Source of the DNA: Methanotorris formicicus Mc-S-70
GTDB taxonomy: Archaea; AGJL01; Methanococci; Methanococcales; Methanococcaceae
Direction of reading: 5' to 3'
Length of the DNA stretch: 13,034 nt
Assembly: GCF_000243455.1 (NCBI RefSeq)
Contig: NZ_AGJL01000051.1
Location: 1 to 13,034 of the forward strand
Part shown: positions 1 through 13,034 of the stretch, piece after piece
Numbering within the stretch: the first letter of the stretch is position 1
How the letters are laid out: each line of letters opens with the position of its first letter
Position numbers and translations under genes: made by a program
Notes under the pieces: model-generated
Told to the model about the DNA's origin: nothing
What the model saw: only the letters and a program-made list of their open reading frames with translations
Databases searched by the model: none

Positions 1-2
1 CG

Positions 3-176
3 ATTTTAGATGTTGAGGGAAATTACCTAACGTCTGAAAAGAGCAATATTGGGTTTGTTAGGTTTATAGCAATGGTATCAAACTGTATAGAATATTTAAG
101 CCACAAATATGGATTATCATTCTATGGAGTGATTAAAGAGTGCAGTAAAGAGCTAATAAAGAAAGGATTCTCGTAA
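3..176 (+). CDS. 3' end of an unidentified protein-coding gene (5'-partial at window edge)
   Basis: Frame +3 is open from the window edge to TAA at 174-176. It gives 57 codons: ILDVEGNYLTSEKSNIGFVRFIAMVSNCIEYLSHKYGLSFYGVIKECSKELIKKGFS*. A T7 run follows at 228-234. I recognise no family by eye. Confidence 0.35.
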   Translation: MLDVEGNYLTSEKSNIGFVRFIAMVSNCIEYLSHKYGLSFYGVIKECSKELIKKGFS

Positions 177-239
177 TCACACTGTCAGTTAAAAGTATTT
201 TATATCCTCAATAAAACTCATCTGTTCTTTTTTTATCAA

Positions 240-494
240 GTTTCCATCCTTGTTTTAATGGACTAAGATTTCAAACATTAAAGATAAAAAAGATATATTC
301 ATAAAACAATTGTTTCCATCCTTGTTTTAATGGACTACCGATTCAAACACTAAATATCCATAGCTATTTCCCCAACCTTTTCTTGGGTTTCCATCCTTGT
401 TTTAATGGACTACCGATTCAAACAGTATATAGTAGTTAGGTCGTGGTCTTATACTTCGTTTCCATCCTTGTTTTAATGGACTACCGATTCAAAC
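240..494 (-). CRISPR. CRISPR array A: 4 x 37-nt repeats, 3 spacers (35, 38, 34 nt)
   Basis: Repeats lie at 240-276, 312-348, 387-423 and 458-494. The plus-strand unit is gtttccatccttgttttaatggactaccgattcaaac. The copy at 240-276 has 4 substitutions (ccga to agat) and so looks like the degenerate terminal repeat. On the minus strand the unit reads GTTTGAATCGGTAGTCCATTAAAACAAGGATGGAAAC, ending in the typical ..GAAAC. An AT-rich leader with a TATA element lies on the 495+ side. Transcription is therefore inferred to run right to left. Confidence 0.9.
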
Positions 495-528
495 CCTTAA
501 CTTATTTCTTTTTTATTGTGAAAACTCA

Positions 529-537
529 TATATATAC
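529..537 (-). promoter_or_regulatory. Putative TATA box in the leader of array A
   Basis: The minus strand reads aaagaaaaGTATATATAtgag. The box ends 34 nt upstream of the first minus-strand repeat base (494). This fits archaeal TATA-to-TSS spacing, with transcription starting just before repeat 1. Confidence 0.35.
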
Positions 538-930
538 TTTTCTTTTTCAGCCCCATTTTTCTTACTGCTTAATTATTGAAACCTTTAAAAGAGTAAGAAA
601 GATTGTGCAATTTCTTTTTAAATCAACTGCACAACCACGCTAATAAATCTTGATAATTAGACCTTATTTTATATTATCTAAAACCAATCTAAACTTAAAA
701 TATGCTAAATAAAAACAAACAACAAAAATATCTAAAAAATAACAAATTTCCATTAAAAAAATCAGTAATACTTTTCATGAATTTTCTAGTACTAAAATCC
801 ACAAACCCCTTTATAAAAGCAAGAAAAGTTAATTAAAAAAATTAATATAGATATTAAAAAAATAAGAGTCACTGTTAAGCGAAAAACAGTGCATTCCTTT
901 GAATGAAACCTTTTTAAAGATTTTAAATAA

Positions 931-1806
<876 letters not shown>

Positions 1807-2091
1807 TTATTATTTCATCAGTTTTAAATTTTAAATAAGACATAATTTATTTTTCAATATTTAACGCAAACAACTATATTTGCTAAATACTATTACAATG
1901 GTATATAAACTTAAATGAAATTTTTAAAGTTTAGTAGGGTTTCATCAGTTTTATTAAAATATTGATTTTTTACTTTTTTGGTATTCTTTTTGTTTTTGAC
2001 GGAGTCAATTAATATAACAAAAAATATTGAATAATCTATTAAATAAAACTATAAAATTATAAGAAGTGTAAAAAAATTTTTAGGTGTTGTG

Positions 2092-2616
2092 ATGAAGGAG
2101 TTAGGTTTGAGAGAATTTTTAAAGGATTGTGAAAAATTGGTTATAATAGGAATAGGGAATGAAATGAAGGGTGATGATGGAGTTGGAATATATATTGTTA
2201 AAGAAATTGCCAAACGCTTTGGAAAGTATGGCAATGATGAGGTTATAAAAATCAATGAATATATCATCCTTTTAAACTGCGGAACTGTTCCAGAAAACTT
2301 TACAGATGTTTTAAAGAGAGAAAATCCCTCTCATATTATAATGATTGATGCTGCATTGATGAATGAAAAAATTGGGGAAATAAAGGTAATAAATCCAGAA
2401 GATATTGTAAATGTTGGATTTTCTACACATGCATTGCCATTATCGATTATTATTAAATACATTAAGAAATCTATAAATACCAAAATAATAGTAATAGGTA
2501 TAGAACCAAAAATTATAGATTTTGACAAACCACTGTCTAATGAAATTAAGCATCGTGCAGACAATTTTATTGAATATTTGGTTAAAATAATCAACACTAT
2601 TTTTGTTAGATGTTAA
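2092..2616 (+). CDS. Hydrogenase maturation endopeptidase (peptidase A31; HycI/HyaD/FrhD family)
   Basis: Signature VIIGIGNEMKGDDGVGIYIV is present, with downstream metal-ligand positions (MIDAA and GFSTHALP). An AGGTG RBS at 2082-2086 sits 5 nt before the ATG at 2092. The ORF track begins at the GTG at 2089. I cannot assign it to a specific hydrogenase. Confidence 0.85.
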   Translation: MKELGLREFLKDCEKLVIIGIGNEMKGDDGVGIYIVKEIAKRFGKYGNDEVIKINEYIILLNCGTVPENFTDVLKRENPSHIIMIDAALMNEKIGEIKVINPEDIVNVGFSTHALPLSIIIKYIKKSINTKIIVIGIEPKIIDFDKPLSNEIKHRADNFIEYLVKIINTIFVRC

Positions 2617-2704
2617 ATCTTTAAAAAATTTACGCTTATTGATATGAGGAGAGGACAAGTAATAAAAAGTAAGGATTTTGCTCAATTTACTTAAGGTGGA
2701 ACAT

Positions 2705-4630
2705 ATGGAAGTATTTTCAGTTAAGTTTAAGACTACAGAGGAATTGCCCGAACCTTCACCAAGATTGATAGATCAAGTTATTGGTCAAGATGAGGCAGTT
2801 AAGGTAGTGTTAAGTGCAGTTAAAAATAAAAGGCATGTCCTCCTTTTAGGGGACCCTGGAGTAGGAAAGTCAATGATAGTTAAGGCAGTTGGGGAAATAT
2901 TGGAGGAGTTTGACAACTTTACACCATACACAATAATAGCAAAACCAAATTTAAAAAATCCGGAGAAGCCAATAGTAGAACTTATAGATGGGGAATACAA
3001 AGAAGATACCAAAGATGAAAAAATAAGCATCCCAACACAACCACCAAGTTTATTGACCCTATTTTTAATAATGATAGCATTTACCGTAATCTCATCATGG
3101 TTGTTGAGGGGATTGCCGGAAAGTAAAATGCTCGCTACCATAGCAATTGTGGCAATTGTGGGCTCTTTAATAGCATTTGTATCCATTTTCTTAGGGGTTC
3201 TTGGGGCAACAAAATCATCAATGCCAAATGCTGTAAATCCTGTTGATTTAAAACCAGTTATTTTATATGAATGCAAAAAAAGACCACTCGTAAGAGCAAG
3301 CGCTTATAACGTAACAAAATTACTTGGAGATGTTAAACACTGTCCTTTAGGTGGAAGACCACCACTTGGAACTCCTCCACACAAAAGAATAATCCTTGGG
3401 GCGATCCATGAGGCACATAAGGGAATTTTGTATGTTGATGAGATAAAAACCATGCCATTGGAAGTGCAGGATTATATCTTAACAGCCCTCCAAGATAAGC
3501 AACTTCAAATTAGTGGTAGAAACCCAAATTCAAGTGGAGCAACAGTTGAAACAAACCCAATACCGTGTGATTTTATCCTAATAATGTCTGGAAACATGGA
3601 TGATGTCCATAACTTAAGAGCCCCATTATTGGATAGGATTGACTACAAGATTGTCTTAAAAAACAAAATGGATAACACCTTAGAAAACAGGGATAAGTTG
3701 TTGCAATTCATTATCCAAGAGATAAGGAACAACAACCTAAATCCAATGACCTATGAAGCATGCTGCGAAATCGTTAAACTTGCCCAATTGTTGGCTGGTT
3801 CAAGGGATAAATTAACATTGAGGCTGAGAAAGTTATCAAATATCATAAAGATGGCAAATGATATTGCTATTGGTAGGGATATAGAGGAGATTAAAAATAA
3901 TGTGGAAGGGGAGGAATATAAGAACATTGAAAATAATGGAAAAAAGGTTTATATTACAGCGGAACATGTTAGAAAGATTATAGAAAGTGGAATTTACAGT
4001 ATGTCAAAGCAAGTGGCATTAGAATATCTAAGAAACTTTAAGAGATACAAGCACATCGTTCCAAATGATGAGCCAAAGGTTGGAATTATCTATGGTCTTG
4101 CTGTTCTTGGGGAAGATGGATTGGGGGATGTAACAAAAATCATCACCCAAATAATAGATTCAAAGAGCCCTGCAACCCATCTCCTCAACATATCTGGGGA
4201 TTTGGCAAAGCATTCTATAACCCTTGCATCTGCATTATCAAAGAAACTTGTTGCAGAAGGAAAATTGCCACTACCTAAGAAGGATATTGACCTAACATCA
4301 AAAGAGATATATATCCAATTCAGCCAATCATACTCAAAAATTGATGGAGATAGTGCAACAGCAGCAGCCTGCCTAAGCATCATCTCAGCATTATTGGAGA
4401 TTCCATTGAAGCAGGACTTTGCTATAACGGGAAGTTTGGATTTGAGTGGAAACATTCTTGCAGTTGGTGGGATTAATGAGAAGGTAAATGCTGCAAAGGA
4501 ATATGGATTTAAGAGAGTCATTATCCCCGAGGCAAACATGATTGATGTTATTGATACAGGAGGGATAGAGATAATTCCTGTTAGAACTCTCGATGAGTTG
4601 ATACCTCTTGTATTTGATTTAAAAAAGTAA
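2705..4630 (+). CDS. lon: Archaeal membrane-bound ATP-dependent Lon protease (LonB)
   Basis: Walker A is GDPGVGKS and Walker B is ILYVDEI. Two TM helices are inserted in the AAA+ module (LLTLFLIMIAFTVISSWLL and LATIAIVAIVGSLIAFVSIFLGVLG). The protease domain carries KIDGDSATAA (catalytic Ser) and GGINEKVNAAKE (Lys). I prefer the ATG at 2705, which is preceded by AGGTGG at 2694-2699, over the TTG at 2678 used by the ORF track. Confidence 0.95.
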   Translation: MEVFSVKFKTTEELPEPSPRLIDQVIGQDEAVKVVLSAVKNKRHVLLLGDPGVGKSMIVKAVGEILEEFDNFTPYTIIAKPNLKNPEKPIVELIDGEYKEDTKDEKISIPTQPPSLLTLFLIMIAFTVISSWLLRGLPESKMLATIAIVAIVGSLIAFVSIFLGVLGATKSSMPNAVNPVDLKPVILYECKKRPLVRASAYNVTKLLGDVKHCPLGGRPPLGTPPHKRIILGAIHEAHKGILYVDEIKTMPLEVQDYILTALQDKQLQISGRNPNSSGATVETNPIPCDFILIMSGNMDDVHNLRAPLLDRIDYKIVLKNKMDNTLENRDKLLQFIIQEIRNNNLNPMTYEACCEIVKLAQLLAGSRDKLTLRLRKLSNIIKMANDIAIGRDIEEIKNNVEGEEYKNIENNGKKVYITAEHVRKIIESGIYSMSKQVALEYLRNFKRYKHIVPNDEPKVGIIYGLAVLGEDGLGDVTKIITQIIDSKSPATHLLNISGDLAKHSITLASALSKKLVAEGKLPLPKKDIDLTSKEIYIQFSQSYSKIDGDSATAAACLSIISALLEIPLKQDFAITGSLDLSGNILAVGGINEKVNAAKEYGFKRVIIPEANMIDVIDTGGIEIIPVRTLDELIPLVFDLKK

Positions 4631-4658
4631 TTTTTTATTATTTTTAAAAGTGGTTGTT

Positions 4659-4940
4659 ATGGATGATGTTGAGGAGAGGTTAAATACATTAGGTAAAAAA
4701 ATTTTAGAGATGGAGAAAAGGGTTGATGCAAAAATAAAAGAAAATGAAAAGAAAATAGACAAAAAAATATATGAGTTTTCCAAACAGAATTCCATGTTTT
4801 TACTTGCCATGTATGTAAAGATGCTCAATGAAATTGCAAAAGAATTAAAAAGGATAAGGTATTTTTTATTGTTATTAAATTTGGTGTTCTATTTGGCAAT
4901 ACTTGGGATTTTTGTGTATTTTGTCTTAAATCTTAGGTGA
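4659..4940 (+). CDS. Small hypothetical protein: N-terminal charged coiled-coil, C-terminal TM anchor
   Basis: The ORF is open from the GTG at 4650, and the first ATG is at 4659. The sequence [36 protein letters not shown]... ends in the hydrophobic [22 protein letters not shown]. It is tightly packed between lon (stop 4630) and the aldolase (start 4945), on the same strand. Confidence 0.5.
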
Positions 4941-4944
4941 TAGG

Positions 4945-5487
4945 ATGGATTTTAAGTTGTTCGTTGATATATGCCACAAATTGTATGAAAGAAAGTATGT
5001 GGTTGGTAGTGGAGGGAATGTCTCAGTTAGGGAAGGAGATTTAATATATGCAACCCCAACTGGTTCCATTTTGGGATTTTTAAAAGAGGAAGATATAAGC
5101 GTTGTTAATATAGATGGGGAAGTAATAAAGGGGAAACCAACATCTGAGATAAATATGCATCTCAATCTATATAGAAAGAGGGATGATATAAATGCAATAA
5201 TACATGCCCATTCGTTGTATTCAACTGCATTTTCAATTGCAAATAAAAAAATAGAACTTCTAACTCCAGAGGCTAAGATATTTTTAAAAGAGATTGGATA
5301 TGTGGATTACTTTGAGGCAGGAAGTTTGGAACTTGCTGAGGAGGTTGCAAAAAGGGATGAAGATGTTATTATTTTAAAAAATCATGGTGTTGTTTGCTTG
5401 GGAAGTAGTTTAATAGATGCATATATAAAAATAGAGGTTCTTGAAGAAATTGCAAAATTAAATCTAATAGTAAATACATTAAAATAA
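4945..5487 (+). CDS. fucA: Class II aldolase/adducin family protein, L-fuculose-1-phosphate aldolase-like
   Basis: 180 aa. Motifs include [25 protein letters not shown], the Zn-ligand histidines AIIHAHS and [11 protein letters not shown]. An AGGTGA RBS precedes the ATG. From memory, it is adjacent to lon as in M. jannaschii MJ1417/MJ1418. Confidence 0.85.
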
Positions 5488-5489
5488 AT

Positions 5490-5768
5490 TTACTCATTTT
5501 TAACAGTTTCTAACTCACTTACAATACTCCAAATTTGAGTCCTTGTGTGTAAAGGCATGTTTGGGTCGTCACTTATATCATCTAAAATTTGGATTGCAGT
5601 TGCACTTTTAACAATTGGTTCCTCCCCTTCTTTTAAAATAGTTTCTTTTGCTTTTTCAGCAGCACCCCTTATGTTTCTTGGGACTGTTGTATCATTAATA
5701 ATTTCATCCAACATCATAGCAATCTGTTGTAATTTCTCCTCAGGAGTTAATTTCTTTGGTGCAAACAT
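5490..5768 (-). CDS. UPF0147 family small conserved archaeal protein
   Basis: Conserved blocks DTTVPRNIRGAAEKAKE and DDPNMPLHTRTQIW are present. I prefer the ATG at 5768 with GAGGTGG 5 nt upstream. The ORF-track GTG at 5777 would overlap that RBS. The gene is convergent with fucA, and the two stop codons are 2 bp apart. Confidence 0.8.
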   Translation of the reverse strand: MFAPKKLTPEEKLQQIAMMLDEIINDTTVPRNIRGAAEKAKETILKEGEEPIVKSATAIQILDDISDDPNMPLHTRTQIWSIVSELETVKNE

Positions 5769-6121
5769 CACTACCACCTCTCAACGTGTTTATGAAAAAA
5801 TCTATATGCACCATACAGAAAATTTTGATACCTAAAAATCCACATCAAAATTTACACAACAACAAAATCAAAAAATCAAAACCAAAAATATTTGAAATTT
5901 TAGTTTTATATTAACCTCTACAATTTATATTATGTTAAGTTATATTTAAGTTTGTTGGTTGATTAAGTTGTTCTGCAAATATTTATGAGTAATTTCTTAA
6001 ATTTGAATTAGAAGTGTTTAATAAGATATTAATCGTTTAATTGTAGAACGACATAGTCACCCGTAATTATTTTTTAATTGAATAACACTTAAATTAGATG
6101 TTTATTGTAGATGGTGGAAAA

Positions 6122-6277
6122 ATGGAAGATTTTATTGGCAGTTTAATCATCCTTACTGTTCTTTGGTATTTAATTCCCTTAAATGTTAAAATTGAGATTG
6201 ATGATAAGATTTATCATTTTCAAAAGAATTCAGGGGATTTGGGATTTAAACTTAAAACTAAGAAGATTGAGGATTGA
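6122..6277 (+). CDS. Candidate 51-aa small membrane protein
   Basis: ATG at 6122 is preceded by GGTGG at 6113-6117. The product is MEDFIGSLIILTVLWYLIPLNVKIEIDDKIYHFQKNSGDLGFKLKTKKIED*, with one predicted TM helix and a charged tail. It is below the ORF-track cutoff and I recognise no homology. Confidence 0.3.
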   Translation: MEDFIGSLIILTVLWYLIPLNVKIEIDDKIYHFQKNSGDLGFKLKTKKIED

Positions 6278-6414
6278 TTGTAATTTGTAGTGAATAAGTC
6301 TTATCTACAATAAATTCATACAATTAAATTAATAAATTAATTAATAACAAAAACACACAAATATGTAGTGGGTTATATTCATTACACAATCATCATTATA
6401 ATCATGGGGATATT

Positions 6415-9400
6415 ATGGTTCACGTTGCATGTTCTGAAAAAATGAGAAAATACTTTGACAATATTATAAATGAAGTTAAAAAAATTTATAAAATAGCGGA
6501 AGAATGTAGGAAGATGGGCTTAGACCCGGTAGATAAGGTTGAAATTCCATTAGCGAGTGATATGGCAGATAGGGTTGAGGGACTGGTTGGCCCAAAAGGT
6601 GTGGCAGAGAGAATTAGGGAATTGGTTAAAGAAATGGGTAAAGAGCCAGCGGCATTGGAAATTGCAAAGGAAATTGTGCAGGGGAAGTTTGGAAAATTTG
6701 ATAGAGAGAAATTGGCAGAGCAGGCAGTGAGAACAGCGTTGGCAGTTTTAACAGAGGGTATTGTTGCTGCTCCGTTGGAAGGAATTGCACAAGTTAAGAT
6801 AAAAAAGAACTCCGATGGAAGTGAATACCTCGCTCTTTATTTTGCAGGACCTATTAGAAGTGCAGGGGGAACTGCACAGGCATTGGCTGTTTTGGTTGGG
6901 GATTATGTTAGGAAGGCAATGGGATTAGACAGATACAAACCAACAGAAGATGAGATAGAGAGGTATTTGGAAGAGGTTGATTTATATCAATCAGAGGTTG
7001 GTAGTTTCCAGTATTCTCCAACCGCAGATGAGATAAGGACTGCAATAAAAAATATTTCAGTTGAGATTACTGGGGAAGCGACGGATGATGTTGAAGTTTC
7101 AGGACATAGGGATTTGCCAAGAGTAGAAACAAACCAATTAAGAGGAGGGGCGTTGTTAGTTTTAGTTGAGGGGGTTTTGTTAAAGGCACCAAAGATATTA
7201 AGGCACGTAGATAAGTTGGGTATTGAGGGATGGGAATGGTTGAAGGACTTAAAAGGAAAAAAAGAAGAGAAAAAAGAAGAGGAAGAAGAGGATGAGTTAA
7301 AAAGTGATGAAAATATTGAAGATGAAGAAGATAAGAAATATGATGACGTTGAAATTGAGGCAAACAAAAAGTTTATAAGCGAGGTTATTGCGGGAAGACC
7401 TGTTTTTGCCCACCCTTCAAAGGTTGGAGGATTTAGATTGAGGTATGGAAGGAGTAGGAATACTGGATTTGCAACAGATGGCTTTCATCCAGCATTGATG
7501 TATTTGGTTGATGAATTCATGGCTGTTGGAACTCAACTAAAGACTGAAAGACCTGGAAAGGCAACATGTGTGGTCCCAGTTGATAGCATAGAACCTCCTA
7601 TAGTGAAACTTAAAGATGGGAGCGTTATTAGGGTAGATTCAATAGAAAAAGCAAAAGATATTAGAGGGGCAGTTGAGGAAATCTTATTCTTAGGGGATAT
7701 TTTAGTTAATTATGGGGACTTTTTAGAGAACAACCATCCATTAATACCAAGTTGTTGGTGTGAGGAGTGGTATGAGAAGATTTTGATAGCAAATAATGTC
7801 CCATATAAGAAGGAATTCATAAAAAATCCAAATCCAATAGAGGCGGTGAAATTTGCCATAGAGACAAAAACTCCTCTCCACCCAAGATATACATACCATT
7901 GGCATGATGTTTCAAAGGAAGATATATTTTTACTTAGAAATTACCTTTTAGAAGGAAAAGAAGAAGAGATTGATGGAAAAAAGGTTTGGGTTGTGGATTT
8001 AGTTAGTGAGGAGCATAAAAAGGCAAAGAGGATTTTGGAGTTAATTGGTTGTTGCCATTTAGTTAGAAATAAGAAGGTTATTATTGGGGAGTATTACCCG
8101 TTGCTATATTCCTTAGGTTATGATGTGGAAAATAAAAAAGATTTGGTTGAAAGTGTTGAGGAATTATTAAATAAGGCAAAAAATAGCATGCATTTCATTA
8201 ATTTACTGTCTCCATTTGAGATTAGGAGAAACACCTATATCTATGTTGGGGCGAGGATGGGAAGACCAGAGAAGGCAGCAGCAAGAAAGATGAAGCCCCC
8301 AGTCAATGGTCTCTTTCCAATAGGTAATGCGGGGGGACAGGTGAGGTTAATAAATAAGGCAGTTGAAGAGGGGAATACTGATGATATTGATGTCTCTTAT
8401 GCAATATGTCCAAAATGCAGGAAAATAAGTTTATACAAAACATGCCCATTCTGTGGGACAAGAGTGGAATTTAAAGGTCCAGAAAGAATAAAAGCCCCAA
8501 TAAAAGATTATTGGTATAAGGCATTGGAGAGATTAAAAATAAACAAGCCTGGAGATGTTAAGTGTATTAAAGGGATGACTTCAAAGGAGAAAATTGTAGA
8601 ACCATTGGAAAAAGCAATTCTAAGGGCAATGAATAATGTATATGTGTTTAAAGATGGGACTACAAGATTTGACTGCACGGATGTTCCAATAACCCATTTC
8701 AAACCAAATGAGGTAAACGTAAGTGTTGAGAAGTTAAAGGAGTTGGGATATGATAAAGACATCCATGGAAATCCTTTGGTTGATGGAGAGCAAGTTGTTG
8801 AATTAAAACCTCAAGATGTAATTTTGCCTGAGAAGTGTGCAGAGTATTTTATAAATGTTGCAAACTTTGTTGATGATTTGTTGGAGAAGTTCTATAAAAA
8901 AGAGAGATTCTATAATGTGAAGAAGAAGGAGGATTTAATTGGACATTTGGTTATAGGAATGGCTCCACACACCTCTGCAGGAATGGTTGGTAGGATTATT
9001 GGTTATTGTAAGGCAAATGTTGGTTATGCTCATCCCTATTTCCACGCATCAAAGAGAAGAAACTGTGACGGCGACGAAGATGCTTTATTCTTGCTTTTAG
9101 ACGCATTTTTGAACTTCTCCAAGAAATTCCTCCCAGATAAAAGAGGGGGGCAGATGGATGCTCCACTTGTATTGACAACCATATTAGACCCAAAGGAGGT
9201 TGATGGGGAAGTTCACAACATGGATACTATGTGGGAATATCCATTGGAGTTTTATGAAAAAACCCTTGAAATGCCATCCCCAAAAGAAGTCAAGGAGTTT
9301 ATGGAAACTGTTGAGGATAGATTAGGAAAGCCAGAGCAATATGAGGGAATTGGCTATACTCACGAAACAGATAGAATAGATAATGGCCCATTAGTTTGTG

Positions 9401-9816
9401 CATATAAAACATTGGGTTCAATGCTTGAGAAAACAGAGGCACAGTTAAGTGTTGCTAAAAGGATTAGGGCAACAGATGAGAGAGATGTTGCTGAGAAGGT
9501 TATCCAATCCCACTTCATTCCTGATTTAATTGGAAATTTAAGGGCATTTTCAAGGCAAGGGGTTAGGTGCAAGTGTGGGGCAAAGTATAGGAGAGTTCCA
9601 TTGAAGGGCGTTTGTACGAAGTGTGGAAGCAACTTGATATTAACCGTTTCAAAAGGTGCAGTGGAGAAGTATATGGAAGTTTCTCAAAAAATGGCAGAGA
9701 AGTATAATGCAAACGACTACATAAAACAAAGATTGACATTGATTAAAGAAGGTATTGATTCATTATTTGAAAATGATAAGAAAAAGCAGGTTAAGATAAG
9801 TGATTTCTTTAAATAA
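6415..9816 (+). CDS. polC: DNA polymerase II (PolD) large subunit DP2, intein-free
   Basis: 1133 aa. The catalytic acidic motif is [20 protein letters not shown]. Zn fingers are [17 protein letters not shown] and [20 protein letters not shown]. The N-terminal domain is conserved ([38 protein letters not shown]). The length matches uninterrupted DP2. Confidence 0.97.
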
Positions 9817-9844
9817 TTTAACTTTATACATCTCTTGCTAAAAG

Positions 9845-9872
9845 TTTTTATTTTTTTATTTAATTTATTTTT
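9845..9872 (+). terminator. Oligo-T tracts downstream of polC (archaeal intrinsic termination signal)
   Basis: The sequence gtttttatttttttatttaatttattttt begins about 30 nt after the polC stop and contains runs of T5, T7 and T5. Confidence 0.4.
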
Positions 9873-10193
9873 AAAGGGTTATTTTTTGATTTTGTAGATT
9901 TTTATCGAATTTCGAAGGTCAGTCTATTTTAAAGAATTTGAGTATTTAGTTTTATGAATTTATTGAGATTTTTGGATTTAGGGAATTGGTAATAATTATT
10001 TTAGATTTTCCCCAATAGGTAAAAAATATTTTAAAATTTAAAAAGATTTTAGATGTTTAATTCGAATTTAAACGATTTTTAGAGAAGTGCGGAGGTATAT
10101 AAATGAACGCTGTTAATACCCCTTCGAAGATCAAGGTCTCGAAAAGGAGTAAGTAGAAAAGTTTATATAGGAAAAAGAGCAAAATTTTATCCT
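9873..10193 (+). promoter_or_regulatory. Leader of CRISPR array B, including a consensus TATA box at 10162-10169
   Basis: This is an AT-rich non-coding stretch upstream of repeat 1. The element agaaaagTTTATATAgg matches the methanogen TATA consensus, and its 3' end lies 24 nt before the first repeat base (10194). A relatively GC-rich module at 10086-10150 contains a second TATA-like element (GGTATATAAA, 10094-10103). Confidence 0.7.
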
Positions 10194-11588
10194 GTTAAAA
10201 TCAGACCCTAGGGGGATGGAAACGAAATAACAGAAGGACAACAGGGATTTGAAAACATTGAGTTAAAATCAGACCCTAGGGGGATGGAAACTCAAGGAAA
10301 TGTTTTAGCAATAAATTCAACAACTGTAAAGTTAAAATCAGACCCTAGGGGGATGGAAACGAGATAAAAGAATGGTTGGATAAATTTAAAATTGAGAGGT
10401 TAAAATCAGACCCTAGGGGGATGGAAACAAAAAAGCCATAAAGCAAGCAATGCAAAAATAAAACCTGTTAAAATCAGACCCTAGGGGGATGGAAACATCT
10501 GACATACACATCACATAACATTTTGTTTTTTTTGACAGTTAAAATCAGACCCTAGGGGGATGGAAACATAAACTTTGAGAAGTATAAGTATATTTGGGTT
10601 AAGGTTGATGGTTAAAATCAGACCCTAGGGGGATGGAAACATCTCTTTCTCTTCGTCTATCTCATAACTATCAAATACTGTTAAAATCAGACCCTAGGGG
10701 GATGGAAACTATAATCTTTTTTAATTAATGTTCCATCTTCAAGGTAGAAATGTTAAAATCAGACCCTAGGGGGATGGAAACGAAATAACAGAAGGACAAC
10801 AGGGATTTGAAAACATTGTTAAAATCAGACCCTAGGGGGATGGAAACTACGAATTTCCCCACCCTTTATGAATTAAAATGCAGGTTAAAATCAGACCCTA
10901 GGGGGATGGAAACGATTAATATGAAGTATTGAGAAGTCACTAAACAGTAAGTTAAAATCAGACCCTAGGGGGATGGAAACATTTTTTATAGCAAATCCGT
11001 TATAATCCCTTTCCAAAGTTAAAATCAGACCCTAGGGGGATGGAAACTCGTACTCTCTCAATAATTTTATAAATTCTCCAACACGTTAAAATCAGACCCT
11101 AGGGGGATGGAAACCAAGTTTTTTTATAAGTTAATTTTATCAGGGCAAAAGTTAAAATCAGACCCTAGGGGGATGGAAACACTCTTTTAAAATCACCATA
11201 TCCATTTAATAAATTTAGTTAAAATCAGACCCTAGGGGGATGGAAACTTTCTAAGTGGGATAGGAACTCTATAATGTGTTAATGTTAAAATCAGACCCTA
11301 GGGGGATGGAAACCTTAAAAACAGGTTTTTTAATCTATTAAAAAGCATACTTGTTAAAATCAGACCCTAGGGGGATGGAAACATCAAATTCAACAAGATA
11401 CTTATTATCCCCAATATATTGTTAAAATCAGACCCTAGGGGGATGGAAACCTCTATCTATCCCATATCCTTGAATTAATTCAAATAGTTAAAATCAGACC
11501 CTAGGGGGATGGAAACTAAATTCATCAGTTGCATCTATGAATGCTTTTGCATCAAATAGTTAAAATCAGACCCTAGGGGGATGGAAAC
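10194..11588 (+). CRISPR. CRISPR array B: 21 identical 30-nt repeats, 20 spacers (36-43 nt)
   Basis: The repeat is GTTAAAATCAGACCCTAGGGGGATGGAAAC. Repeats start at 10194, 10262, 10331, 10399, 10467, 10538, 10611, 10680, 10752, 10818, 10884, 10951, 11018, 11085, 11151, 11218, 11284, 11353, 11421, 11487 and 11559. Orientation follows from the ..GGAAAC 3' end and the upstream leader/TATA. All 21 copies read identically by eye. Confidence 0.97.
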
Positions 11589-11624
11589 ATTCTTTTATTA
11601 AAACTAAAAGAACAGGAAAGAAGA

Positions 11625-11721
11625 GTTATTTTTTTCTGTATGTTTCAGGTATATTTTCAAAATTGTAGATATGGATGGTTTCGGTTCAATGGGTTATTTT
11701 TTCTGTATGTTTCAGGTGTAT
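11625..11721. repeat. Tandem 30/29-bp duplication of nuclease coding sequence around a 38-nt insert (neo-repeat unit)
   Basis: Copy A is 11625-11654, gttatttttttctgtatgtttcaggtatat. Copy B is 11693-11721, gttattttttctgtatgtttcaggtgtat. They differ by one T indel and one A/G mismatch. The unique segment between them is 38 nt (11655-11692). Confidence 0.9.
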
Positions 11722-11947
11722 CAACTCCCAACAACCTAATCTTCCATAATTCTCCATTAACGTTCACATAAACAGTGTCTCCATCCACAACTTTAACGAC
11801 CTTTCCATAATAATGTTCATGAGTATTTACAAAATTAGAGGTATCTGAATTACTGTCATGAAAATTATTATTATGGAGTTCAATACATCCTCCTAAAAAA
11901 ACAAAAATAAGCAACATTAATATTATTGAATATATTTTAGGTTTCAT
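11657..11947 (-). pseudogene. 3'-truncated staphylococcal-nuclease (thermonuclease, SNase) homologue with signal/lipobox-like N-terminus
   Basis: The N-terminus MKPKIYSIILMLLIFVFLGGC looks like a signal peptide with a lipobox-like Cys. It is followed by GKVVKVVDGDTVYVNVNGELWKIRLLGVDTPET, which matches the SNase N-terminal motifs DGDT and R-L-x-G-[IV]-D-T-P-E. Only about 40 residues of the nuclease fold are present. The ORF tail PLNRNHPYLQF* is encoded by the 38-nt insert at 11655-11692. Confidence 0.7.
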
Positions 11948-11965
11948 ACTTCCTCCAAATGGTAT

Positions 11966-12486
11966 TTAGTTTAATCTTTTTAAAGCAATTATTTGGATTG
12001 TTATTAAAGTTAGAATTATTGCCCCTAATGGAATTGGTGCTTTTATTGTATTTCCACCACCGTTATTGTAGTTTCCATTAGATTTTGGTATATAATCAAC
12101 TGTTATTTTAATTGAGTCGATTCTGATAGCCTCTCCTTGTTTATCAATGAATATAGTAACTGAGTTATCACTTAAATATTTTGTAGCATTCTCTCCATCA
12201 ATGGTGATAATGGTAGTTGTGACAATATTATTCCCTACTTCTAATACTCCTACATCTTCACCATCTATCTTAACAATATTATTATCATAATCCACATCAT
12301 AAGCTTTAATTTCTACAGTCATGTTTTGAATATCTATCTCATTTATATCAAAAGTGGAAAATTAAATGTTACATTAATATCCTTATAGCCTACATAGTCA
12401 TTAGGGTCTGTGAAATTCTCCCAAATTTCCCCATATACCACTCCAATAAAGCTCAAAAAAATTAAGGCAATTAATATTTTCTTCAT
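11966..12486 (-). pseudogene. Frameshifted gene for a secreted/surface protein with a C-terminal sorting-signal-like anchor
   Basis: An ATG at 12486, preceded by GGGGGGT, opens MKKILIALIFLSFIGVVYGEIWENFTDPNDYVGYKDINVTFNFPLLI* (stop 12343-12345). This looks like a Sec signal peptide. A second frame is open from 12361 and continues as FSTFDINEIDIQNMTVEIK... to 11966. The two frames overlap across T-runs at 12346-12361, so a 1-nt indel or -1 slip would join them. The C-terminus is NGNYNNGGGNTIKAPIPLGAIILTLITIQIIALKRLN*. Confidence 0.55.
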
Positions 12487-12568
12487 AAATACCCCCCACA
12501 ATATTTACACCCATAATATTATTTTTTTCAAACCATATATTTAACCTTATTTTTGAAATTCAAAATAC

Positions 12569-12767
12569 TTAAATTAATAAAAATATATTAATCGATACTA
12601 TAATTGCTATTAAAACAACAGTCCTTGTTATCTCATTTGAAGCTCCCAAAATATCTCCATTAACTCCACCAAAATGCTTTTTAGCTATTTTAGCCATGCA
12701 TAAACCAGTAATTATTGCTGTTATTATAGCTATTATAACAATTTTCTTCCCAATGTCATCAAATATC
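12569..12767 (-). pseudogene. cobS: 5'-truncated cobS (adenosylcobinamide-GDP ribazoletransferase / cobalamin synthase), last ~65 codons only
   Basis: The sequence [27 protein letters not shown] matches the conserved CobS C-terminal G-G-x-[TN]-G-D-x-L-G-A block followed by a TM helix. CobS is about 240-250 aa, so the N-terminal three quarters, including the D-G-x-A-D region, are missing. The ORF-track start (12781) and its first five codons, MLILT, lie inside a CRISPR repeat. Confidence 0.7.
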
Positions 12768-12866
12768 GTTAAAATCAGCATAGTGGGATGGAAACTCTTT
12801 CAGATGGGATTTTGCACATTGTATTGCTTTTTGTTAAGTTAAAATCAGACCCCTGGAGATGGAAAC
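12768..12866 (+). CRISPR. Orphan mini-array: 2 degenerate array-B-type repeats and 1 spacer (42 nt), no leader
   Basis: The first repeat is 12768-12795, gttaaaatcagcatagtgggatggaaac (28 nt). The second is 12838-12866, gttaaaatcagacccctggagatggaaac (29 nt). The consensus is gttaaaatcagaccctagggggatggaaac. Both keep the gttaaaatcag 5' end and the gatggaaac 3' end. Confidence 0.75.
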
Positions 12867-13034
12867 CTGCTACCACCGTTGACATCATTAATAGTACTGA
12901 TAGTGTGATTTAACAATATTAACTTTAAAACCAAAAAATAGAAATATGTAGTACTTAAATAACTCGTTAAAAAACGGTGCATCTCCTATGCTAGCAGCAC
13001 TTAATAATATACTCACTAATTCTATAAATAGTTT

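Follow-up and report, generated by a model that had tools for sequence, protein, structure and literature searches.

How does a piece of protein-coding sequence come to stand twice, with a spacer-sized segment between the copies, in the place where the repeats of a CRISPR array should continue? The question is raised by the distal end of array B of the methanogen Methanotorris formicicus Mc-S-70, which lies in a stretch of 13,034 nucleotides (RefSeq assembly GCF_000243455.1, contig NZ_AGJL01000051.1, positions 1 to 13,034 of the forward strand), called the window in the following. The duplicated piece belongs to an SNase-like nuclease gene. We favour, with somewhat better than even confidence, an origin in which foreign DNA became attached to a spacer at the border of a repeat, after which Cas1-Cas2 spacer integration duplicated 29-30 bp of the gene sequence.

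The origin of new CRISPR repeats and arrays is largely unsettled; off-target integration by Cas1-Cas2 is the leading experimental model, and natural footprints are scarce. The locus is a well-delimited candidate for such a footprint in an archaeon: target, unit, insert and the unduplicated orthologous sequence lie open to direct reading, and the age of the event has sufficed for its fixation in two strains.

The duplicated unit at the end of array B

The layout downstream of the last canonical repeat is as follows.

11559 to 11588, plus strand: R21, the last canonical repeat, GTTAAAATCAGACCCTAGGGGGATGGAAAC
11589 to 11624, plus strand: S36, 36 nt and thus spacer-length, with the repeat position downstream of it held by U_A
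11625 to 11654, plus strand: U_A, first copy of the unit, 30 nt, GTTATTTTTTTCTGTATGTTTCAGGTATAT, with seven T and an A at 11651; homologous to U_B only
11655 to 11692, plus strand: I38, unique spacer-length insert of 38 nt (37 nt if the unit is counted as 30 nt including C11722)
11693 to 11721, plus strand: U_B, second copy of the unit, 29 nt, GTTATTTTTTCTGTATGTTTCAGGTGTAT; the C at 11722 is position 30
11657 to 11947, minus strand: truncated SNase-like open reading frame (ORF) of 96 aa, consisting of a signal peptide and the start of the SNase domain, with tail and stop from I38

This arrangement was first described in a reading made without database searches (the sequence-only reading), and the coordinates and order given there for S36, U_A, I38 and U_B hold when checked base by base. 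The spacers of array B measure 36-43 nt and its start-to-start periods 66-73 bp; the two periods of the S36-U_A-I38-U_B series, 66 and 68 bp, fall within that range. S36 is taken to be the last regular spacer of the array. U_A and U_B differ by one T in a T-run and by one A/G mismatch. The 15-nt core of the unit occurs at only two sites in the window, and two matches were obtained in none of 200 shuffles. In a scan for local direct repeats (at least 24 nt, at least 85% identity, 30-150 bp apart), the pair is the sole example besides true CRISPR repeats in the ~92 kb of Methanococcales DNA examined, and no dispersed copies of the unit are present in this DNA, which comprises the window and other Methanococcales loci. 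The S36-U_A-I38-U_B series recurs, base-for-base identical, in an independent assembly of M. formicicus (GCA_047915675.1, locus L001), the only other one of the species in the data. The series is therefore real and older than the split of the two strains. A dispersed repeat and a misassembly, two of the findings that would have spoken against the sequence-only reading, are both missing, the former in the DNA examined and the latter by virtue of the identical second assembly.

The reverse complement of U_B encodes DTPETYRKNN, and I38 contributes the tail PLNRNHPYLQF and the stop codon; the proposal that the insert supplies an aberrant C-terminus is thus confirmed by translation. The ORF is 100% identical to an M. 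formicicus protein annotated as "thermonuclease family protein." It keeps positions 1-18 of the 107 of the Pfam SNase profile (PF00565, E 0.084), against positions 1-106 (E 1e-26) in the 194-aa SNase orthologue of Methanocaldococcus sp. 16A (locus L005). The latter is the closest orthologue among the matches listed, with 74-76% amino acid identity over residues 1-82/86; its residues 1-82 aligned with window 11947-11690 give 75.6%. In this orthologue, as in three homologues from the protein search, the unit is single-copy and there is no 38-nt insert; the unit is followed by P-x-E-Y...DG..I.N-I-T-Y-L-K-I-W-G and then by the remaining SNase domain. Over all comparisons, a lone copy of the unit with P-x-E-Y...N-I-T-Y-L-K-I-W after it was counted in five orthologues. 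Intact relatives had been predicted to look like this.

Comparison with the orthologues also reveals which copy has changed. At both differing positions U_B has the ancestral state, with six T in frame and a G that gives the ACA codon for Thr, and the derived copy is U_A. The unit begins with G here, where the orthologues of 16A and M. infernus have A (AAT rather than AAC). Neither flank of U_A is related to the nuclease gene, so that U_A stands as a copy by itself, outside any second gene; the idea that U_A and I38 together are left over from a duplicate or a paralogue of the gene was rejected on this ground.

The unit has GTTA in common with the 5′-end of the CRISPR repeat and, when the ancestral 6-T unit is considered, C30 (11722) as well. 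Its overall identity with the repeat, about 8-10 of 30 positions, is incidental; with orthologous SNase coding sequence it is 83-90%. The unit has no hairpin comparable to that of the canonical repeat (-1.4 as opposed to -5.9 kcal/mol), and the 3′ ATGGAAAC handle is missing, so that the unit does not belong to the repeat family. It is probably a fossil of the integration reaction, non-functional as a repeat. The earlier suggestion that a new repeat had been born here is thus better taken to refer to a relic of the reaction than to a repeat at work.

I38 is not recognisable as nuclease sequence, in line with what had been supposed. Aligned locally with what lies downstream in four orthologous SNase genes, it reaches p values of 0.07-0.9 against its own shuffles, and its scores against the nuclease downstream sequence are, in either orientation, no higher than those of the genuine spacers of the array. 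MAFFT set the ORF tail RNHPYLQF beneath SNITYLKM of the homologues. Decayed nuclease coding sequence was rejected as the source of I38 on two grounds: I38 does not outscore shuffles or real spacers, and the colinear alignment with the 16A locus stops at 11691.

A viral or plasmid source for 11589-11624 and 11655-11692, for which the sequence-only reading had proposed a search, did not emerge. In PLSDB (plasmids) and INPHARED (phages), S36, I38 and the unit gave nothing or chance matches (E ≥ 0.4), and IMG/VR yielded no protospacer for I38 when searched with two of its sub-patterns as exact strings. A match to I38 in one of the examined loci (L007, 19 of 38 positions) was judged to be chance. 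The unit core was also used to scan metagenomes for donor alleles or an empty site, and all 12 matches were chance.

Two conventional origins of a duplication around an insert were likewise set aside. Replication slippage was rejected on the grounds that I38 occurs once, with no tandem second copy, and that the sequences after U_B and before U_A are unrelated to it. Insertion of an insertion sequence (IS), a miniature inverted-repeat transposable element (MITE) or an integrative element was rejected as well, there being neither inverted repeats around I38 or the neighbouring foreign block nor a tRNA that could provide an att site.

The foreign block and the history of array B

The nuclease fragment does not stand alone. 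It forms one end of a larger segment, beyond which CRISPR-like elements reappear.

11693 to 12767: ~1.08 kb of xenologous sequence (the block), colinear with the CobS-p166-SNase genes of Methanocaldococcus sp. 16A; both terminal genes are truncated
11966 to 12501, minus strand: two ORFs of 118 aa (11966-12322) and 52 aa (12343-12501), which jointly correspond to p166
12572 to 12766, minus strand: CobS fragment, the C-terminal 65 codons (Pfam CobS positions 166-207 of 207), ending one base before R′
12768 to 12795, plus strand: R′, degenerate repeat of 28 nt, with a 2-nt deletion and two mismatches relative to the canonical repeat; hairpin lost
12796 to 12837, plus strand: S42, 42-nt spacer between R′ and R″
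12838 to 12866, plus strand: R″, degenerate repeat of 29 nt, with a 1-nt deletion and three mismatches; hairpin lost

DNA alignment reveals that the window is colinear, from 12766 down to 11691, with positions 9171-10245 of the 16A locus L005, where the gene order is HAD - CobS - p166 - SNase - shikimate kinase - CobN. The block covers the last 65 codons of CobS, p166, and the first 85 codons of SNase. Identity to the 16A locus is 86% through U_B, and the alignment breaks off at 11691, after two bases of I38. For the CobS fragment, identity is 75-80% with CobS of Methanocaldococcus (M. jannaschii group), against 44% with the intact CobS of the host (P0014). The native locus of the latter, on a 1.2-Mb contig, reads Sm - EhbP - HAD - CobS - GHMP kinase and has neither p166 nor SNase. 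On account of the Methanocaldococcus-like CobS and of this native locus, the block is xenologous rather than resident. It has no match among plasmid and phage records. Relative to 16A, the p166 homologue has diverged much further (55-70% nucleotide identity) than the pieces of CobS and SNase on either side of it (83-86%).

No leader precedes R′ and R″. The simplest reading is that the block sits inside array B and that R′-S42-R″ is the severed and decayed old trailer end of the array. This changes two elements of the sequence-only reading. The nuclease was there taken for a resident gene fused to the array by a deletion; it is instead the end of a xenologous block lying within the array, with R′-S42-R″ beyond it. 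The insertion was also thought to have disrupted the gene. The gene is already truncated at the edge of the unit, and since its homology ends there, the insertion disrupted no gene.

Each junction of the block coincides with the first bases of a repeat: S36 runs into GTTA at the left one, and at the right one the 16A CobS sequence ATTAAAAG overlaps the GTTAAAAT of the repeat by TTAAAA. The first-base border of a repeat is the phosphodiester attacked by Cas1, and the joining of the block is explained equally well by a Cas1-attack site and by plain microhomology-mediated joining. Microhomology at GTTA, to which the left junction had been attributed, is compatible with that junction and not demonstrated to be its cause. 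The degree of decay is similar throughout: U_A differs from U_B at 2-3 of 30 positions, and R′ and R″ carry four differences each, numbers which are small and compatible with about one episode.

The array into which the block is set has these principal parts.

9817 to 10193, plus strand: leader of array B, AT-rich, 3′ of the gene for the DNA polymerase II large subunit, terminating in TTTATCCT ahead of the first repeat
10194 to 11588, plus strand: CRISPR array B, 21 identical 30-nt repeats (GTTAAAATCAGACCCTAGGGGGATGGAAAC) and 20 spacers

The leader lies on the left, the structure under discussion at the distal, older end. The same leader recurs in locus L001, as do all spacers from window spacer 2 to the distal end; private to each assembly are leader-proximal spacers, one in the window and nine in L001 (window 10194-10261 versus L001 11690-12300). 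Because the assemblies differ only in these, the array is polar and has been active, and the differences indicate recent, polar acquisition.

Two observations on individual sequences of the array may be added. Window spacer 1 (10224-10261) equals spacer 9 (10782-10817) plus 2 nt, and the first spacer of L001, read on the reverse strand, represents the same protospacer in a diverged form, with an indel of 3 nt, so that one target region has been sampled at least three times. Secondly, AAAAGAACA in S36 (11606-11614, -19 to -11 from the unit) matches AAAAGAGCA in the leader (10173-10181, -21 to -13 from the first repeat) at 8 of 9 positions, with a 2-nt offset and in A-rich sequence, which is probably due to chance.

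Proposed origin and competing explanations

The outcome of the first of the two steps that we envisage can be read from the locus itself; its mechanism, and the whole of the second step, we infer. Both steps are old. In the first, a ~1.08-kb fragment of Methanocaldococcus type (CobS′-p166-SNase′) would have lodged in array B of an ancestor of M. formicicus, the CobS end abutting the first base of R′ and the SNase end abutting the 3′-end of S36. A non-repeat sequence running from GTTA to C30 would thereby have come to occupy the place of a repeat, while R′-S42-R″ would have been cut off and would have decayed. In the second step, Cas1-Cas2 may have read the junction between S36 and GTTA...C as a border between spacer and repeat. 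Two attacks 29-30 bp apart, at G11693 and at T11721/C11722, would have inserted I38 as a prespacer of 37-38 nt, and repair of the gaps would have duplicated 29-30 bp of nuclease sequence, giving U_A-I38-U_B. Later, U_A would have gained one T and a G>A change, and also a C>T change if C30 was part of the duplication.

Full-site integration of this kind would account for the length of the unit, the length of the insert, the sharp edges, the foreignness of I38 and the register with the array. A duplication of 29-30 nt stands against a repeat of 30 nt, and an insert of 37-38 nt and an S36 of 36 nt against spacers of 36-43 nt. The putative target, G11693-T-T-A ... C11722, has GTT at positions 1-3 and G and C 30 bp apart, features that suit an integrase if a rule derived from Pyrococcus furiosus applies here by analogy. 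The locus displays most of the structural hallmarks of off-target integration that were examined; a leader-like upstream sequence is lacking, and neither a protospacer nor an empty site came to light. The core mechanism put forward in the sequence-only reading, integration by Cas1-Cas2, is retained as the best available explanation, and its account of a resident gene is dropped.

Several observations weigh against this origin. S36 ends in ...AAGAAGA where the leader ends in TTTATCCT, with A at -3 in place of the C of the leader, and an ungapped comparison of the two yields only 13 identities in 36 positions, so it is not leader-like. The putative integration site is distal in the array. The most parsimonious length of the duplication is 29 nt, not 30. 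Read on the gene strand, I38 has CCA as its first three bases, which encode a Pro present without exception in the orthologues, and the 16A DNA agrees at two of the three; chance is one explanation, an extension of the gene by 2-3 nt past the unit another. No protospacer for I38 or S36 was found in any collection or examined locus, a negative that weighs little because the other spacers of the array were not searched in the collections and have no match in the examined loci either. An allele with S36, the unit and the gene but without I38 was not found, both M. formicicus assemblies carrying the insert. Finally, neither cas1 nor cas2 is present in the window or in L001; a cas10 gene is located ~9 kb downstream, and the strain-specific spacers at the leader end speak indirectly for an adaptation machinery.

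The most serious competitor dispenses with Cas1-Cas2. The fragment would have been joined by complex, microhomology-mediated end-joining together with a 68-nt filler, made up of a templated copy of the terminal 30 nt of the fragment and 38 nt copied from elsewhere, and the lengths would be coincidental. Both block junctions do have microhomology with the 5′-end of the repeat, GTTA at the S36 side and TTAAAA at the R′ side; moreover, the more mutated copy is the left one, and the decay of U_A resembles that of R′ and R″, which fits a single episode. What such a process leaves to coincidence is the agreement of three lengths (29-30, 37-38 and 36) with the repeat and spacer sizes of the array, and it calls for a 38-nt template, whereas no template or other copy of I38 is found within 26 kb of M. 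formicicus or within 20 kb of the donor-type locus. To our knowledge, templated insertions of such size are undocumented for Methanococcales. We regard end-joining as possible, if unlikely.

Less probable again is a single giant insert, in which the 1179 bp from 11589 to 12767 would be foreign DNA in one piece, set between R21 and R′ where a spacer belongs. S36 would then not be a spacer, and the 68-bp rearrangement would have arisen in the donor or by slippage. The span does run exactly from the 3′-end of a perfect repeat to the 5′-end of the next repeat-like element. The donor-type homology ends at U_B, however, the in-register succession of 36, 30, 38 and 29 nt would be due to chance, and slippage would duplicate a whole period, yet I38 is single. 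A donor origin of S36 could be seen in its weak, A-rich match (18 of 19 positions) in CobN of 16A, 3 kb from the SNase gene, but the match falls to 22 of 36 over the full S36 and is of low complexity, and we judged it to be chance.

Integration could also have struck an intact nuclease gene, in donor or recipient, with a later break at the outer edge of U_A that was joined to S36. The evidence of the lengths is then the same as for the origin favoured here, and gapped intermediates could conceivably be fragile at the borders of the unit. This sequence of events nevertheless strikes us as distinctly improbable, because the endpoint of the second event must coincide, to the base, with both the edge of the duplication and the end of the spacer. 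Where the unit begins with G, moreover, 16A and M. infernus have A; this is at least compatible with a G contributed by the CRISPR repeat, and hence with a junction that preceded the duplication.

The course envisaged in the sequence-only reading, in which a resident nuclease gene was fused to S36 by a deletion at GTTA microhomology and then disrupted by spacer integration, draws on the GTTA common to repeat and unit and on the same duplication evidence as the foreign-fragment origin. We hold it to be very improbable in view of the CobS piece (75-80% Methanocaldococcus-like against 44% for the host), a native CobS locus without p166 and SNase, the resumption of the array beyond the block as R′-S42-R″, and gene homology that already ends at the unit; the CobS comparison, the native locus and the end of the homology refute the resident gene, the deletion and the disruption. 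An assembly artefact, excluded by the same structure in two assemblies with different spacer content, and a chance similarity of U_A and U_B, excluded by 0 of 200 shuffles with two core copies, are next to impossible.

Returning to the foreign-fragment origin, the ~1.08-kb fragment with both ends on repeat borders invites the further question whether DNA far longer than a spacer is at times taken up by arrays or by the integrase. The adaptation machinery, or its nick at the border of spacer and repeat, might itself have captured this kb-sized DNA of another genus, the end of which then served as a surrogate repeat; we think this rather doubtful. If true, arrays could admit gene-sized foreign DNA and seed new repeat sequences at the junctions. 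The surrogate-repeat site and the borders of the fragment are concrete substrates for integration assays with Cas1-Cas2 of Methanococcales.

Relation to known systems and other elements of the window

Nivala, Shipman and Church reportedly described in 2018 that off-target integration by Cas1-Cas2 in Escherichia coli makes neo-CRISPR units in vivo and, according to a preprint that refers to their work, are said to have had circumstantial natural evidence from two other species. As in such units, a spacer-length insert is flanked here by a non-repeat duplication of about repeat length. Unlike those experiments, the present candidate is natural and fixed and belongs to a methanogen. It also differs in being in register with an array, at the distal end and at the junction with a foreign fragment, without leader-like sequence upstream.

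In an archaeal system, purified Cas1-Cas2 of P. furiosus performs full-site integration in vitro at non-CRISPR sites (Grainy et al. 2019, PMC6698737). The repeats of this organism are 30 bp long, and the off-target sites have G/C 30-31 bp apart with the border motif GTT, which corresponds to repeat positions 1-3 (PMC6698737). The unit described here is similar, beginning with G-T-T and having a C 30 bp away. The sequence-only reading considered a natural archaeal gene disruption of this kind to be undescribed; to take natural cases as unknown is too strong, given the reported natural evidence in two other species, known from a secondary source, and the archaeal off-target integration in vitro.

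Ectopic acquisition of spacers inside arrays occurs in leader mutants of Streptococcus pyogenes and in CRISPR3 of Streptococcus thermophilus (reviewed in PMC8047081). The new unit at our locus likewise stands away from the leader-proximal repeat. Ectopic acquisition duplicates a genuine repeat, whereas the unit here is gene sequence that shares GTTA and C30 with it. Arrays are known to carry degenerate terminal repeats at their trailer ends (PMC8047081). R′ and R″ represent such decay in its ordinary form, and the unit occupies the place of a terminal repeat; in contrast to trailer-end decay, it is SNase coding sequence and not a decayed repeat.

A direct duplication flanking an insert also recalls transposons, MITEs and casposons. 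Usual target-site duplications are 2-15 bp, and the insert here differs from such elements in being merely 38 nt long, in lacking terminal inverted repeats and in having a duplication of 29-30 bp. Archaeal spacers derived from the chromosomes of related species have been reported (Brodt et al. 2011, PMC3285040), which shows that the CRISPR loci of Methanococcales encounter DNA from the chromosomes of related taxa. Here this DNA is a kb-sized chromosomal fragment and not a spacer of 36-43 nt.

The remaining elements of the window flank the two arrays. The DNA polymerase II large-subunit gene (PolC DP2) occupies 6415-9816, immediately before the leader of array B. In the two closest relatives found for this gene (85-88% identity; L100 3838-4920 and L101 921-2806), other genes directly follow it and there are no CRISPR repeats downstream, so that the placement of array B next to PolC is not conserved; the protein search for PolC relatives gave mostly fragments. 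No Rfam family has a match in the window.

Past R″, from window 12988-13034 onward and in L001 at 8960-7862, three ORFs of 140, 111 and 72 aa lie on the same strand and show a faint match to IS701 transposase. At window 1-197, next to the trailer of array A, lies a copy with 97% identity to the last of these, and a further copy, of 66 aa, is located at L001 7531-7731. A repeated element, possibly IS-derived, thus flanks the trailers of both arrays. Array A is located at 240-494 on the minus strand and consists of four copies of a 37-nt repeat (GTTTGAATCGGTAGTCCATTAAAACAAGGATGGAAAC), the distal one (240-276) being degenerate; the leader side is the AT-rich stretch at ~500-900.

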